Source of the DNA: an uncultured Bacilli bacterium
GTDB lineage: Bacteria > Bacillota_I > Bacilli_A > RF39 > UBA660
Reading direction: 5' to 3'
DNA length: 64,000 nt
NCBI GenBank assembly: GCA_934102255.1
Contig: CAKOSN010000006.1
Span: 11,574 to 75,573 of the forward strand
Numbering within the stretch: the stretch's first letter is position 1; every line of letters starts with the position of its first letter. The notes beneath the pieces are model-generated. The model was given only the letters and a program-made list of their open reading frames with translations. It did not search any database and was not told the DNA's origin. Positions 73 to 4,391 of the stretch are shown in pieces. A program made the translations under genes and the position numbers.

Positions 73-714
73 CTATTTATTTAAACGATAAGACTCGCCA
101 TCCAACTCTTTAAAAGTATACTCCTGTTTCATCTTTGGAAGTTCCATATCTAAAGGCACTTCTTCTTTAACAGACTCCTCTTTTACTTCATCATGACTTT
201 CTAAAGTTACTGGTTTATTTTCATTAACTTCTTCCTTTGGAATATCTTCTTTTTTCGAAAAATCAAAAACATTATTATCTTTTTTATCTTTCAAATTTTG
301 TAAAAAGAATTCTTCAAAATTACTAATTTCTTCATCTTTTAAAACCGGAATAGTTTGAGTCGTTTCTTTTATAACATCAACCGATTCCAAAACACCATCA
401 GATACTGGCTTTACTTCTTCATAAGAAATACCTTCGTACTTAGGTTTTTCATCCTTCTTCTCTTCTTCCGTATCAAAAGAAACATTTTCAAAACTTACTT
501 TTTCCTCAGTATCCTCATTTACTTCTTCTTTAAAAGAAACATTATCCTTACTTTCCTTATCCTTAGGTTCTTCTTCTAACTCTAAATTATTCTTCGCATC
601 TTTAAGTGCTAAAACAAGTGTAATAACAAATAAAACAACAAAAATTAATATTAAAGCTCCTAAAATAATAGGAAAGTTGCTATTACTATATAAATTATTT
701 ATAAATTTTTCCAT
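73..714 (-). CDS. Hypothetical N-terminally membrane-anchored, Glu/Lys-rich protein (last gene of the Tad-like operon)
   Basis: 213-aa ORF. It has a single N-terminal TM helix (FPIILGALILIFVVLFVITLVLAL) followed by a low-complexity acidic region. I recognise no family. Confidence 0.5.
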   Translation of the reverse strand: MEKFINNLYSNSNFPIILGALILIFVVLFVITLVLALKDAKNNLELEEEPKDKESKDNVSFKEEVNEDTEEKVSFENVSFDTEEEKKDEKPKYEGISYEEVKPVSDGVLESVDVIKETTQTIPVLKDEEISNFEEFFLQNLKDKKDNNVFDFSKKEDIPKEEVNENKPVTLESHDEVKEESVKEEVPLDMELPKMKQEYTFKELDGESYRLNK

Positions 715-781
715 ATTAAAACCTTCTATTCTTAAATTTAGATTACCATAAATATTTACTTATTGCAATAAATTTTAACCC

Positions 782-1441
782 TTAATCTAAATATTTTGGT
801 CCAATTAAAATAATTAATAAAGTTAAAATTAAAAATATTACACTAAACAATACTATTTTAACCGGAATAGCACTAATATTCTTCTCTCGCGTAACTTTTT
901 TATCTTCTAAAATCTTATTTAAAATATCTTCGGCTACTCTTTTTGTATCATTACTACTTAACATTAAAATATCATCACTAAAAGAATACTCCGGAATAAC
1001 ACTTATTAAATTAGTAACTACATCATTAAAATTATTATATTTCTTATTTAAATAAACTATTTCTTTTGTCAAATCATTATCTAAATTCTTACTAACCATC
1101 TTAAATACTAAGTAAGCATCATTATTCTGATTTAAACCTAAAAGATATAATTTAATAAAAGTTTCTAAGTCATTTCTAATAACTTGCTCCCTTTTAATAA
1201 TTCTAGAATTAATTAGAACATCTTCATATAAATAATGAAAAAGAATAGTAAATAAAAAACTTAGAACAATACCATATACGGGAATTAACAAAAGAACAAT
1301 AAATATAATGAACTCCATTAAAAGACGAGTAATTAAAAAAGTATCAATATTTATCTTATTATCTATTCCTAATCTTTTAATCTTCTTATTTAAATTAACT
1401 AAATATTTCTTAGGATATAAGACTTTAACAAAATTATTCAT
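782..1441 (-). CDS. TadC-like inner-membrane protein (T2SS-F-type domain)
   Basis: 219-aa ORF with TM helices flanking a soluble helical domain. It overlaps the upstream TadB-like gene by 8 nt, in the position expected for tadC. Confidence 0.5.
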   Translation of the reverse strand: MNNFVKVLYPKKYLVNLNKKIKRLGIDNKINIDTFLITRLLMEFIIFIVLLLIPVYGIVLSFLFTILFHYLYEDVLINSRIIKREQVIRNDLETFIKLYLLGLNQNNDAYLVFKMVSKNLDNDLTKEIVYLNKKYNNFNDVVTNLISVIPEYSFSDDILMLSSNDTKRVAEDILNKILEDKKVTREKNISAIPVKIVLFSVIFLILTLLIILIGPKYLD

Positions 1442-2423
1442 CTTTAACCTCCAAGATATTCTTAATTATATAAATATAAATACTATATAATGCTATAACG
1501 AGTACTACTAAATATAATCCTTTACCATTCATTAATCTAGCAAAATAATCTAAATTAATAAACACCCCAAAGATAAATACTAATAAAGGAATTAACAATA
1601 CAATTAAGAATAAATAATTATAAACATCAACAATCTTAAATACATGTTCCCTTTCTTCATAAGCTTTAATATTATCATTAATAATATATTTAAAAGCATC
1701 TTCATAACTAATATTAAGAAGACTAGCTATTTTTAAACTTTGATAAATTGATAATACTTCTTTAATATTACTACGTTTATAAAATTTATAATACGCATCT
1801 TCTAAACTAATATTATGTCTTATATCTTTTAAAATCTTATCTAGTTCATCTGTAATATCACCATCTAAGTTGTGTATAGCATAATTTATAGCATTATCGA
1901 TGCTCATTTTTTTATTTAAACCATAATAGATATACTTAGTACTTATAAATACATCTTTAACTATTCTATTAGTCCTCTTAATATATAAATATTTCCAAAA
2001 TAAATCAGGTAAAAAGTAACTAGCTAGGAAAACAACTATAAAGATAAATGGACTAGCTGGTAAAATACTTAAAACAACACCCATTAAACATAAAGATGAG
2101 GTAATAATAACTAATAATAGTTTAATTGTAAAATAATCAACTGGACTAGTTCTATCTCTATTAATTTCTAAAATATATTTATCATATTTAAGCGATAATT
2201 TATTGACAAAACCATAGTGACTTAAACCACCACTTAAATTATGAATAATCTTAAAGAAACCATTTGTAATATTATTTAAAATCGAAGTATTATCTTTAGG
2301 AATATCTAGACTAAACTTACTTATACGATGAACTTTTTTTAAAGTATTAGCAAGTCTTAAAAGAAAAATACCTACTAATATTGCTATACAAGCAATAATA
2401 ATTTGAATTACATAAATTGGCAT
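1434..2423 (-). CDS. TadB-like inner-membrane platform protein (T2SS-F-type domain)
   Basis: 329-aa ORF with N-terminal, central and C-terminal TM helices. The soluble helical segment (...MSIDNAINYAIHNLDGDITDELDKILKDIRHNISLEDAYYKF...) fits the GspF/TadB repeat pattern. It lies directly after the ATPase gene. Confidence 0.55.
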   Translation of the reverse strand: MPIYVIQIIIACIAILVGIFLLRLANTLKKVHRISKFSLDIPKDNTSILNNITNGFFKIIHNLSGGLSHYGFVNKLSLKYDKYILEINRDRTSPVDYFTIKLLLVIITSSLCLMGVVLSILPASPFIFIVVFLASYFLPDLFWKYLYIKRTNRIVKDVFISTKYIYYGLNKKMSIDNAINYAIHNLDGDITDELDKILKDIRHNISLEDAYYKFYKRSNIKEVLSIYQSLKIASLLNISYEDAFKYIINDNIKAYEEREHVFKIVDVYNYLFLIVLLIPLLVFIFGVFINLDYFARLMNGKGLYLVVLVIALYSIYIYIIKNILEVKDE

Positions 2424-2425
2424 AA

Positions 2426-3628
2426 CTACACCTCAAAAATATCATCTAAGGTATCATTACCATTACTTTTTAATTTTTTATATGTATGATTACTTTCTTT
2501 TATTAAACTAAAGGTATTATTTTCATAAACAAAGACATCTTTTAATTTTTGACCTACAACTTCTTTAATACCCGTAACTCTAATTTTAGCATCCATACCC
2601 TTTTCCATATAAACTAATATATCAAAACCTGTATAAATACTATTTACAACAGTATCTTCCTTCATATCTGGATTTTCTAATAAAACATTAGTAACTAAAT
2701 TTTCTAAAGTAAACTTACGAATATCAAAACTAGATATAATTCCTTGTTCTTTATTAACTAATTTTAACAAAGTATTAGCATTTTTATTAGCATATATTAA
2801 GTAAGAAGGACTTAAAGCCTCTATAACATTAATATCCGATGTATTAGTACTTACTAATTGATGCGTACTATCTAAATTTTCTTTCAAACCAGCATAAACT
2901 ATTCTTTCATTAGTAGGAATAAAGTTTAATAAAGTATTAATTAAAGTTCTCTTACCACTACTCTTATTGCCACAAACTAAAATATTTAATTTAGCCTTAA
3001 CACAAGCTTCTAAAAATCTTGCCATATAAGGAGTAAGCGTTCCTAAACGAATCAATTCTTCAATACTTTCTAAGGTTTTATCAGTCTTACTAATTGTAAG
3101 GACTGGACTTGCTACGATAGGTGGTACTAAAAGAGTAACTCTAGCATCATCTAAAGTTTTAAAAGAGATATAAGCATCATCTAAAGAAATATTTAAATTA
3201 TTTTTACGAGCTAAATTAGTAACAGTCTTAATTATATGTTCATTATTAATAAATGAAATAGAAGGGTCTCTATGATATCCTGTATTAGTTAAAACATAAA
3301 CCAAACTAGGTGAATTAACAAATATTTTCTTAACCGAAGTGTCATTCATAACTTCTGTAATTGGACCAATCCCATATATTTCATTGTCAATTAAGTTATA
3401 TAAATATTGTTTTTCTAAAGTACTAAGATTCAAAGATTTAGTATATTCATCTACTTTACTATGAATATCTGGTTCCTTAAGTCCCAGAGAAACTTCATCT
3501 ATCAAACTAAAAGTTATATCATTCTTAATTTTTTCTAAAGTTTCTTTATCTTGAAATATTTCATAATCATTTAATTTTAAAAGATTACTATTTGTTATAT
3601 TAAAAGCATTAGCTAAAGTTTTACTCAT
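2426..3628 (-). CDS. TadA/CpaF-family secretion ATPase homologue with degenerate catalytic motifs
   Basis: 400-aa ORF. Hand alignment to CpaF/TadA: GPITEVMND..VKKIFVNSPSLVYV, LVPPIVASPVLTISK, P-loop ILVCGNKSSGKRTLINTL. At the positions where I expect the Asp box, Walker B and His box I read ERIVYAGLKENL, LIYANKN and KEQGIISSF. Confidence 0.6.
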   Translation of the reverse strand: MSKTLANAFNITNSNLLKLNDYEIFQDKETLEKIKNDITFSLIDEVSLGLKEPDIHSKVDEYTKSLNLSTLEKQYLYNLIDNEIYGIGPITEVMNDTSVKKIFVNSPSLVYVLTNTGYHRDPSISFINNEHIIKTVTNLARKNNLNISLDDAYISFKTLDDARVTLLVPPIVASPVLTISKTDKTLESIEELIRLGTLTPYMARFLEACVKAKLNILVCGNKSSGKRTLINTLLNFIPTNERIVYAGLKENLDSTHQLVSTNTSDINVIEALSPSYLIYANKNANTLLKLVNKEQGIISSFDIRKFTLENLVTNVLLENPDMKEDTVVNSIYTGFDILVYMEKGMDAKIRVTGIKEVVGQKLKDVFVYENNTFSLIKESNHTYKKLKSNGNDTLDDIFEV

Positions 3629-4391
3629 CTTTATTACCTCCCATTATATCAGCTGCTAAGTTAAGTAAGGCTGTATAATCATTTTGATAATGTTTAAGAA
3701 CTTTACTATTTAAGGTAATTATCTTACCGTCCATTATTTCTTTTTCCATATCAGTTATATAAAATTCATTAGAAATATGATAATCAATATTAGCTTTAAT
3801 AATACTTTTTATATCATAAAGACTAAAGTATTGTTTTAATGGGTTAACACTTTCATTTAAAAGGATACGATATTTATTAATATTTAAATTATCAAATAAA
3901 GTTACTAAATTTTTAGTATTTTTTAAATCCATTGGACAATTAGTTGTAACTACAATCGCCATATCACAAAAGTCTAGAGCAAAGACATTTATTTCATTTA
4001 AAATATGGGTCATATCAATTAGAATAACATCGTATATAAATGAAGCTTTTTCTAAAACAATATTAATTAAAGAATTATTAATTTTATTAAAGTCTCTTGG
4101 GTCAGTAGAAGCTGGTAATATATCAATATAATCATCATATTTAACTACATAATCATTTAAAGAATCATAAGTATTATGTTCAATATCATATAACATATTA
4201 CAAATATTCTTTTTATAAGGCGTATTAAGCATTAAAGCAAGACCACCATTAGTCAAATCTAAATCAATTAGTAAGACTTTTTTATTCATGCTTTCTATTA
4301 TTCCAGCCAAATTAGCAGTTAAAGTTGTTTTACCAACTCCGCCCTTACCACTAGTTATACAAACTACTTTTCCTTTACGCAAATTTTTCAT
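3621..4391 (-). CDS. ParA/MinD-family ATPase, TadZ/CpaE-like
   Basis: 256-aa ORF with a deviant Walker A (VCITSGKGGVGKTTLTANLA). It is the first gene of the operon and overlaps the ATPase gene. Confidence 0.7.
   Translation of the reverse strand: MKNLRKGKVVCITSGKGGVGKTTLTANLAGIIESMNKKVLLIDLDLTNGGLALMLNTPYKKNICNMLYDIEHNTYDSLNDYVVKYDDYIDILPASTDPRDFNKINNSLINIVLEKASFIYDVILIDMTHILNEINVFALDFCDMAIVVTTNCPMDLKNTKNLVTLFDNLNINKYRILLNESVNPLKQYFSLYDIKSIIKANIDYHISNEFYITDMEKEIMDGKIITLNSKVLKHYQNDYTALLNLAADIMGGNKDE

Follow-up and report, generated by a model that had tools for sequence, protein, structure and literature searches.

An operon near the left end of the 64,000 nt stretch analysed here (the window: positions 11,574 to 75,573 of contig CAKOSN010000006.1, assembly GCA_934102255.1, from an uncultured RF39 bacterium of the Bacilli) probably encodes a repurposed membrane complex that is derived from the Tad pilus machinery and makes no pilus. 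The window has about 25 % GC, and its minus strand holds five tightly packed open reading frames (ORFs) between positions 4391 and 73. In the order in which they are read these encode a TadZ-like ATPase of the ParA/MinD family, a protein derived from the Tad motor ATPase TadA/CpaF, which we refer to as TadA*, platform proteins like TadB and TadC, and an acidic membrane-anchored protein of 213 aa, X213; the initial annotation of the sequence had listed the same five genes in this order, and the ORF coordinates bear it out (Table 1). By alignment, TadA* has lost the residues for Mg2+ binding, water activation and gamma-phosphate sensing (the equivalents of T288, E312, R347, E357 and H382 of Caulobacter CpaF), and all five genes of the operon are, judged by the ratio of their nonsynonymous and synonymous substitution rates (dN/dS), under purifying selection.

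The active site of TadA*

The relationship of TadA* to CpaF is most evident in its N-terminal part. The Pfam T2SSE profile (PF00437) matches residues 87-244 (profile positions 5-174 of 370; 36.6 bits, cut-off 24.9), the NCBIfam TadA profile covers residues 68-258, and CpaF structures align to residues 36-246 and again, weakly, to residues 322-369, with 75 residues between these blocks in the query and 96 in CpaF. The profile matches end right after the P-loop, which reads GNKSSGKR. The relatives found in a protein search with TadA* grade from 96 % to about 35 % identity. Those of 440-480 aa carry GGTGSGKTT, IEDAAEL, TIRDLV, RMRPDRIIVGEVRG and NTGHDGSLTTLHAN in the alignment; TadA* and its nearer relatives (398-427 aa) are without these canonical motifs and have deletions in the same core, ~45 residues being deleted from TadA* relative to the canonical proteins.

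We compared 80 related genomic loci (designated by L numbers below) and tabulated the motifs of 81 proteins, comprising 67 canonical ones, 13 degenerate ones and that of the window. Walker A, the Asp box, the arginine-finger helix, Walker B and the His box are essentially invariant in all 67 canonical proteins, and the 13 degenerate proteins and the window protein retain of these only GxxxxGK (G220, S/T224, G225 and K226), the glycine and the lysine of the P-loop being invariant across the TadA* clade. The N-terminal domains of TadA* are also retained. The initial annotation had read AGLKENL, YANKN and KEQGIISSF at the places of the Asp box, Walker B and the His box respectively, and alignment with the 67 canonical relatives puts these three stretches in exactly those columns. 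In all 14 members of the clade the Asp-box glutamate is replaced by Gly or Asp, the Walker B glutamate by Asn, Lys, Ser or Asp, and both histidines of the His box are lost. No intact Walker B or His-box motif displaced to another part of TadA* was found by profile, structure or multiple alignment, and the proposal that this TadA is catalytically dead thus holds at the level of its sequence.

Cryo-EM work on CpaF has assigned functions to the equivalent residues (PMC12019362, PMC11300603): the gamma-phosphate is contacted by K287 and Mg2+ is held by T288 and E312, the glutamate of Walker B is E357, H382 belongs to the His box, R217 and R223 are arginine fingers of the N-terminal domain (NTD), and R347 is an inter-subunit finger stabilised by D215. 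In the same work the substitution K287A left no ATPase activity in vitro, and E357A put an end to the formation of phage plaques, by which the authors gauged the function of the Tad pilus. The counterpart of K287 is kept in the window protein as K226. The Mg-binding T288 corresponds to R227 (Arg, Lys or Ser across the clade), E312 to Gly (Asp in four clade members) and E357 to Asn (Lys, Ser or Asp elsewhere in the clade), and at the two His-box positions, including that of H382 (alignment columns 337 and 345), the window protein has Glu and Asp and no member of the clade has His. In the window protein Ser takes the place of D215 and Lys that of R217, the position of R223 is variable in the clade, and the helix that carries R347 is deleted throughout it. 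An AlphaFold2 model of TadA*, built from a 60-sequence alignment, has a mean predicted local distance difference test score of 80.9, and in a Foldseek search with it CpaF is the first match (E about 1e-24; about 420 columns, template modelling score 0.63-0.69) and FlaI and archaeal GspE come next; as modelled, the CpaF fold is kept despite the loss of the catalytic residues.

Members of the T2SSE family in genomes with the degenerate locus are a PilB-like protein (~410 bits), usually a PilT-like protein (~100 bits) and the degenerate TadA itself (25-49 bits). A second, canonical CpaF (~200 bits), as is present in the canonical genomes, was found in none of nine degenerate genomes. We therefore reject the view that these genomes encode an active CpaF in addition to the dead ATPase; as no intact copy was found, the dead one has to be the orthologue rather than a spare paralogue. 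In the maximum-likelihood tree a branch with a Shimodaira-Hasegawa-like approximate likelihood ratio test (SH-aLRT) support of 100 has all 14 degenerate proteins on one side, their internal branches being 2.3-3.4 substitutions per site long compared with about 0.1-0.3 for the canonical tips, and the degenerate group is likely to have a single origin. A TadA is encoded in 158 of 301 sampled genomes of the order, and within this sample the degenerate type was seen only in the window's own genus.

Descent from a pilus locus

The order tadZ-tadA-tadB-tadC is conserved in those related loci that are long enough to show it. In the canonical locus L045 an ORF of 72 aa (MNRRGQALVEYILII...) has a Flp_Fap match and a class III signal and is followed by two ORFs with TadE and Tad matches, and the locus further has matches to ParA, to T2SSE at 208 bits and to T2SSF (PF00482) on both TadB and TadC, the canonical copies of the platform proteins that were tested. 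In most canonical loci with enough upstream sequence, a pattern scan picked up flp and/or tadE immediately upstream of tadZ; 12 degenerate loci were open to the same scan, and neither gene was found in any of them. The deletion of the pilin genes is seen directly when gene orders are compared, L023 having Obg-DUF192-flp-tadE-tadE-tadZ where L020 and L089 have Obg-tadZ. The L089 locus, which is already without pilin genes, encodes an intermediate protein (P0094) in which the glutamates of the Asp box and Walker B are present and the His box and the arginine-finger helix are lost; this suggests that the loss of the pilins came first and that the active site decayed stepwise after it. The nearest named record, 'Mycoplasma sp. 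CAG:956', presumably a member of the GTDB order RF39, has a locus that is 97 % identical to that of the window. We note also that a DUF192 (PF02643) gene adjoins flp on the opposite strand in both L045 (7508-7837) and L023 (7843-8172), and that no such gene is present upstream of tadZ in degenerate loci with listed upstream ORFs.

The absence of a pilin gene had been remarked upon in the initial annotation, and it extends to the surroundings of the operon and to the clade genomes searched. Searches for Flp and TadE genes gave none in the operon or in its flanks (11.5 kb beyond the window start and 1.1 kb upstream), and none in the rest of the window's genome. The 5' flank had been assumed to lie beyond the window; since the operon is on the minus strand, it is the 3' flank that lies outside and the 5' flank that lies within, and no pilin gene was found in either. 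TadE (PF07811) was found in none of nine genomes of the degenerate clade and in all four canonical genomes, and a Flp profile built from canonical sequences reached no more than 26 bits in eight degenerate genomes as against 103-139 bits in four canonical ones. The weak matches of this profile in the degenerate genomes lie in frames of 183-261 aa, and the one in the window's genome is a type IV pilin. A prepilin peptidase, also reported as missing, is indeed absent from the Tad operon, but this is not diagnostic because both types of locus rely on one unlinked peptidase: of 12 genomes searched, which included both classes, 11 have a single A24 peptidase that is unlinked to the Tad locus, and canonical loci too are without a linked one. 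In L012, whose TadA* is 87 % identical to that of the window, the genome's single A24 peptidase gene (6950-7717) is located ~1.5 kb upstream of tadZ on the same strand.

The possibility has to be weighed that the operon nevertheless encodes a working filament machine, in which TadA* would be an adaptor and power would come from a PilB- or PilT-like ATPase, or TadA* would hydrolyse ATP in a non-canonical manner, the fibre being formed by type IV pilins encoded elsewhere or by an unrecognised small protein. The window's genome does encode the parts for this, with PilB on contig C30, adjacent genes for PilC and the PilD peptidase on C11, and genes for seven or more type IV pilin-like proteins; a PilT-like ATPase is encoded in other genomes of the clade, the P-loop glycine and lysine are invariant in TadA*, and the position of the peptidase gene in L012 could be taken in the same sense. 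However, PilB, PilC and PilD constitute a complete type IVa-like set of their own, which is equally present in the canonical genomes, TadB and TadC have lost the conserved T2SSF motifs, and the small ORFs upstream of the operon encode a peptide that is like a type I toxin and is missing from many loci of the clade. We know of no type IV filament system that uses a motor without Walker B and both boxes, and we regard a working filament machine as quite unlikely.

A separate observation on pilin-like proteins concerns a gene elsewhere in the window (38628-40895, minus strand; C6:50201-52468), which encodes a 755-aa protein with a type IV pilin-like N-terminus, KGFTIPELLAVIVIIGIL. A similar protein of 629 aa is encoded on contig C27, and both are unusually large for pilin-like proteins.

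Selection on the operon and its possible function

The dN/dS values in Table 1 were obtained by the method of Nei and Gojobori (NG86) for ten pairs within the degenerate clade. In close pairs the ratios are about 0.02-0.3. For the pair formed by the window and L009, which is not saturated (dS about 0.22), the ratio is 0.066 for the whole of tadA* and 0.024 for residues 243-325, its degenerate core. The initial annotation had left a choice between a repurposed platform and a degenerating system, and these ratios go against the second. A decaying Tad remnant on its way to being lost would account for the loss of the pilin genes and catalytic motifs and for the accelerated evolution of TadA, TadB and TadC, but it is hard to reconcile with the finding that no frame is broken in 13 loci or in hundreds of copies from metagenomes (38-97 % identity), with purifying selection even in the degenerate core of TadA*, with the preservation of overlapping start and stop codons and with the gain of a new conserved gene, X213; we reject it as highly improbable. 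A repurposed platform is favoured, all of the genes being under purifying selection and the ParA-like gene alone not being accelerated.

The latter point emerges from a comparison of the two classes of locus, in which the ranking of conservation is inverted, TadA being the best-kept protein in canonical loci and TadZ in the degenerate clade. In canonical pairs with TadZ identities of 40-55 % the mean identities are 46 % for TadZ, 69 % for TadA, 42 % for TadB and 48 % for TadC, and in pairs of the degenerate clade with TadZ identities of 55-70 % they are 59, 43, 39 and 37 % respectively. Between degenerate and canonical loci the corresponding means are 46, 38, 27 and 28 %. TadZ is thus no more diverged between the classes than it is among these canonical loci, and TadA, TadB and TadC are strongly accelerated.

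TadZ has the deviant Walker A sequence SGKGGVGKT, the switch LIDLDL..GG and Walker B VILID, all of which are conserved in both classes of locus, and it matches AAA_31, CbiA and ParA in Pfam and MinD/ParA/CpaE homologues in NCBIfam. With the signature lysine of the P-loop and the aspartates of the switch and Walker B it belongs with the deviant-Walker-A ATPases of the ParA/MinD type, and the intact KGGVGKT that had been read in it is confirmed. It could be asked whether TadZ, anchored through TadA*, TadB and TadC, acts as a spatial regulator that marks the pole or septum and regulates division or envelope growth in the manner of Ssd, a TadZ/CpaE homologue of actinobacteria. Such a role is consistent with TadZ being the most conserved and the sole non-accelerated component with all of its ATPase motifs kept, with a weak NCBIfam match to the Ssd/CpaE homologue family (1.5e-10) and with the description of TadZ as the positioning factor of Tad machines (PMC11300603). 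The locus is without conserved linkage to division genes, however, and a regulator of this kind would overlap with a repurposed complex rather than exclude it; as an explanation in its own right we think it unlikely.

The platform proteins are recognisable mainly through their canonical relatives. TadB is found by phmmer with E-values of 1e-11 to 1e-32 to canonical TadB, although its own Pfam T2SSF match has an E-value of only 0.047, and TadC is similarly related to canonical TadC (1e-10 to 1e-19) and has no Pfam match of its own. The alignment shows that conserved cytoplasmic motifs of the T2SSF family are replaced in both proteins, for example LNKTGGNI by ASLLNISY, and this is why Pfam barely detects TadB and misses TadC. 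Some canonical relatives have a TadB of ~500 aa (L055, 11330-12859; L079, 11313-12842; L061, 10446-11930; and others), with an N-terminal extension of ~170 aa before the first transmembrane (TM) helix that contains repeated, possibly Ig-like segments.

X213 has one N-terminal TM helix (about residues 14-46), which is the sole confident part of its AlphaFold2 model, followed by an acidic region that is predicted to be disordered. The conserved parts are the N-terminus with the TM helix, a short helix (IPVLKDEEISNFEEFF...) and the C-terminal motif LPKMK.EY.FKE.DGE.Y. The gene follows tadC in all loci with at least 57 % identity, a shorter form being present in L019 and L021, and none of the 151 homologues (48-99 % identity) has a Pfam domain. 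X213 occurs only in the degenerate clade, whose operon it has joined as a new gene. A relationship to TadE or Flp was considered and rejected, with hhalign probabilities of 1-3 % and no detectable homology. The predicted topology, with a short N-terminus, a TM helix and a long C-terminal tail, is like that of an unassembled pilin, and although this is a resemblance only it marks out X213 as the best candidate for a new partner or client that the platform may have gained.

The repurposed complex that we favour can be pictured as follows. The operon would be an in situ descendant of a flp-tadE-tadF-tadZ-tadA-tadB-tadC pilus locus of a kind that is widespread in related small-genome gut Bacilli. 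The TadB/TadC platform, a ring of TadA* and TadZ would still assemble as a complex at the cytoplasmic membrane and no pilus would be polymerised; TadA* would serve as a scaffold or adaptor that does not hydrolyse nucleotide, and it may still be able to bind nucleotide or phosphate. Since TadZ alone has an intact ATPase site, any nucleotide-driven step would be positioning or switching through a cycle of the ParA type and not the cycle of a rotary motor, and X213 would be the new partner or client. Several points weigh against this interpretation. That the proteins form a complex, that TadA* binds nucleotide and that X213 has the role given to it here is inferred, and a non-canonical catalytic arrangement in TadA* is compatible with the sequence. 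The single origin of the clade may be inflated by long-branch attraction, and for this reason it is likely rather than proven. The NG86 ratios are approximate at 25 % GC, and dS is saturated for distant pairs. Finally, the metagenome-assembled genome (MAG) that contains the window is only 75 % complete, though eight other genomes of the clade agree with it.

A more far-reaching proposal, which we offer tentatively and think possible rather than probable, is that an entire type IV filament machine has become a membrane device that forms no filament, with a dead hexameric ring, TadZ as the sole enzyme and X213, a bitopic protein, in place of the pilins as the client of the platform. Such a device may represent a new functional class derived from Tad systems, for example an envelope landmark or display device that is positioned in the manner of ParA. 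Type IV filament machines are defined by their engines, secretion ATPases of the PilB/CpaF/FlaI family, and in CpaF one substitution at a residue of the kind lost here is enough to abolish function; if confirmed, the operon would be a natural case of a machine that was kept after losing both the chemistry of its engine and its substrate. The TadA* clade would then help to tell those parts of CpaF that are used in assembly or scaffolding from those used in catalysis, and the operon points to what TadZ does alone. Literature searches turned up no account of a Tad ATPase that is catalytically dead and none of Tad systems in RF39, which is not proof of novelty; nor did we find a lineage described in which the ATPase, TadZ and the two platform proteins remain under selection although all pilin genes and the full set of catalytic residues have been lost. 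There is also a caution for annotation, in that such loci in MAGs from the gut would be named 'Flp pilus assembly' though no pilus can be predicted.

Operon layout, flanking DNA and known systems

The five genes form one predicted operon with its own candidate promoter and terminator (Table 1). The promoter candidate is the best consensus match of the region and is situated ~37 nt upstream of the tadZ ATG. The start codon of tadA* overlaps the tadZ stop codon by 8 nt, and that of tadC overlaps the tadB stop codon likewise by 8 nt; a gap of 67 nt separates tadC from the X213 gene. The terminator that had been noted after the operon was recovered as a hairpin followed by six U residues at about 71..40; a strict consensus terminator scan did not list it, probably because of its GC-poor stem.

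Table 1. Features of the operon, with the range of dN/dS for each gene
Feature	Coordinates	Strand	Basis	dN/dS
Operon promoter (candidate)	4428..4457	minus	TTTACA, 18-nt spacer, TG-extended TATAAT; consensus match at 11/12 positions	
tadZ/cpaE-like ParA/MinD-family ATPase, 256 aa	3621..4391	minus	Pfam and NCBIfam matches, motifs	0.007-0.15
tadA*, predicted cpaF-derived pseudo-ATPase, 400 aa	2426..3628	minus	Profile, structure and motif alignments, AlphaFold2 model	0.05-0.32
tadB-like platform protein, 329 aa, membrane	1434..2423	minus	phmmer to canonical TadB	0.03-0.46
tadC-like platform protein, 219 aa, membrane	782..1441	minus	phmmer to canonical TadC	0.05-0.30
X213, 213 aa, N-terminal TM helix and acidic tail	73..714	minus	Clade-specific homologues, alignment	0.13-0.41
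Intrinsic terminator-like hairpin and U6	40..71	minus	Sequence and fold; directly after the X213 stop codon	

Upstream of tadZ there is a tandem duplication of a unit of ~500 bp (window 4518-5498). Each copy contains an ORF for a hydrophobic peptide of 24 aa (5240-5314 and 4731-4805, minus strand) with a good ribosome-binding site, followed by a long hairpin, the peptides of the two copies being MEYLVVLIVILVLIARILDSGNRN and M/VEYLVIFALILIILDEVINSIRRK. The peptide is conserved upstream of tadZ in L010, L013 and L017 and absent from L012, L014-L016 and L018-L020, and the unit looks like a type I toxin-antitoxin unit. The 'EY plus hydrophobic' start of MEYLVVLIVILVLIARILDSGNRN raised the possibility of a leaderless Flp remnant, which was rejected on account of the type I toxin-antitoxin architecture with terminator hairpins and the patchy occurrence. 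An Rfam search of the region upstream of the operon gave nothing meaningful. Between these toxin-like repeats and parC are genes for YlbD_coat-like (124 aa) and YlbE-like (75 aa) proteins (window 5490-6088, minus strand); the Pfam names of these families come from a sporulation context, which is noteworthy in a MAG of a small-genome member of the Bacilli.

On the other side, just beyond the window start (C6:4733-11530, L001), the genes downstream of the operon are on the same strand. The first encodes a 531-aa protein with multiple TM segments and a weak DUF4352 match, and it is followed by genes for five Tim44-like paralogues, four of which end in a C-terminal zinc ribbon and three of which have a signal or TM segment and long Ser-rich tracts; the last gene of the set encodes a DUF3592 protein. 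The 531-aa protein and the Tim44-like paralogues were considered as parts of the module and rejected, since they are conserved only in the closest relative, L009.

Four known systems invite comparison with this operon. A precedent for a ring component that binds nucleotide without hydrolysing it in a type IV filament-like machine is FlaH of the archaellum, a RecA/KaiC-like protein with Walker A and no canonical Walker B, which binds ATP without hydrolysis and is the partner of FlaI. FlaH is, however, of another family and functions beside an active FlaI, whereas here the motor itself appears dead and no active paralogue was found in the degenerate genomes searched. Ssd (Rv3660c), the TadZ/CpaE-like septum-site-determining protein of mycobacteria, is likewise of the ParA/MinD type, is encoded in a Tad-like locus and is credited with a role beyond pilus assembly, but the mycobacterial ssd loci, unlike the operon described here, still carry flp and a canonical TadA.

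Closer to hand are the Gram-positive Tad/Flp (type IVc) loci, such as those of Bifidobacterium and Clostridia and the canonical loci L045, L023 and L055, in which tadZ, tadA, tadB and tadC are orthologous to the genes described here and in the same order, with the same translational coupling and CpaF-like fold. The operon differs from these loci in that flp, tadE and tadF were not found in the genomes searched, that TadA is without the Asp box, Walker B, the His box and the arginine finger, that TadB and TadC fall below the T2SSF thresholds, and that there is an extra gene, X213. The best match of TadA* in both sequence and structure is CpaF of Caulobacter crescentus (PDB 8rkd, 8rjf and 9e24), the bifunctional Tad motor. 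The window protein departs from it by the changes of T288 to Arg, E312 to Gly, E357 to Asn, D215 to Ser and H382 to Glu and by deletion of the R347 helix, and it retains the three-helix bundle, the NTD, the RecA-like C-terminal domain and the lysine of the P-loop.

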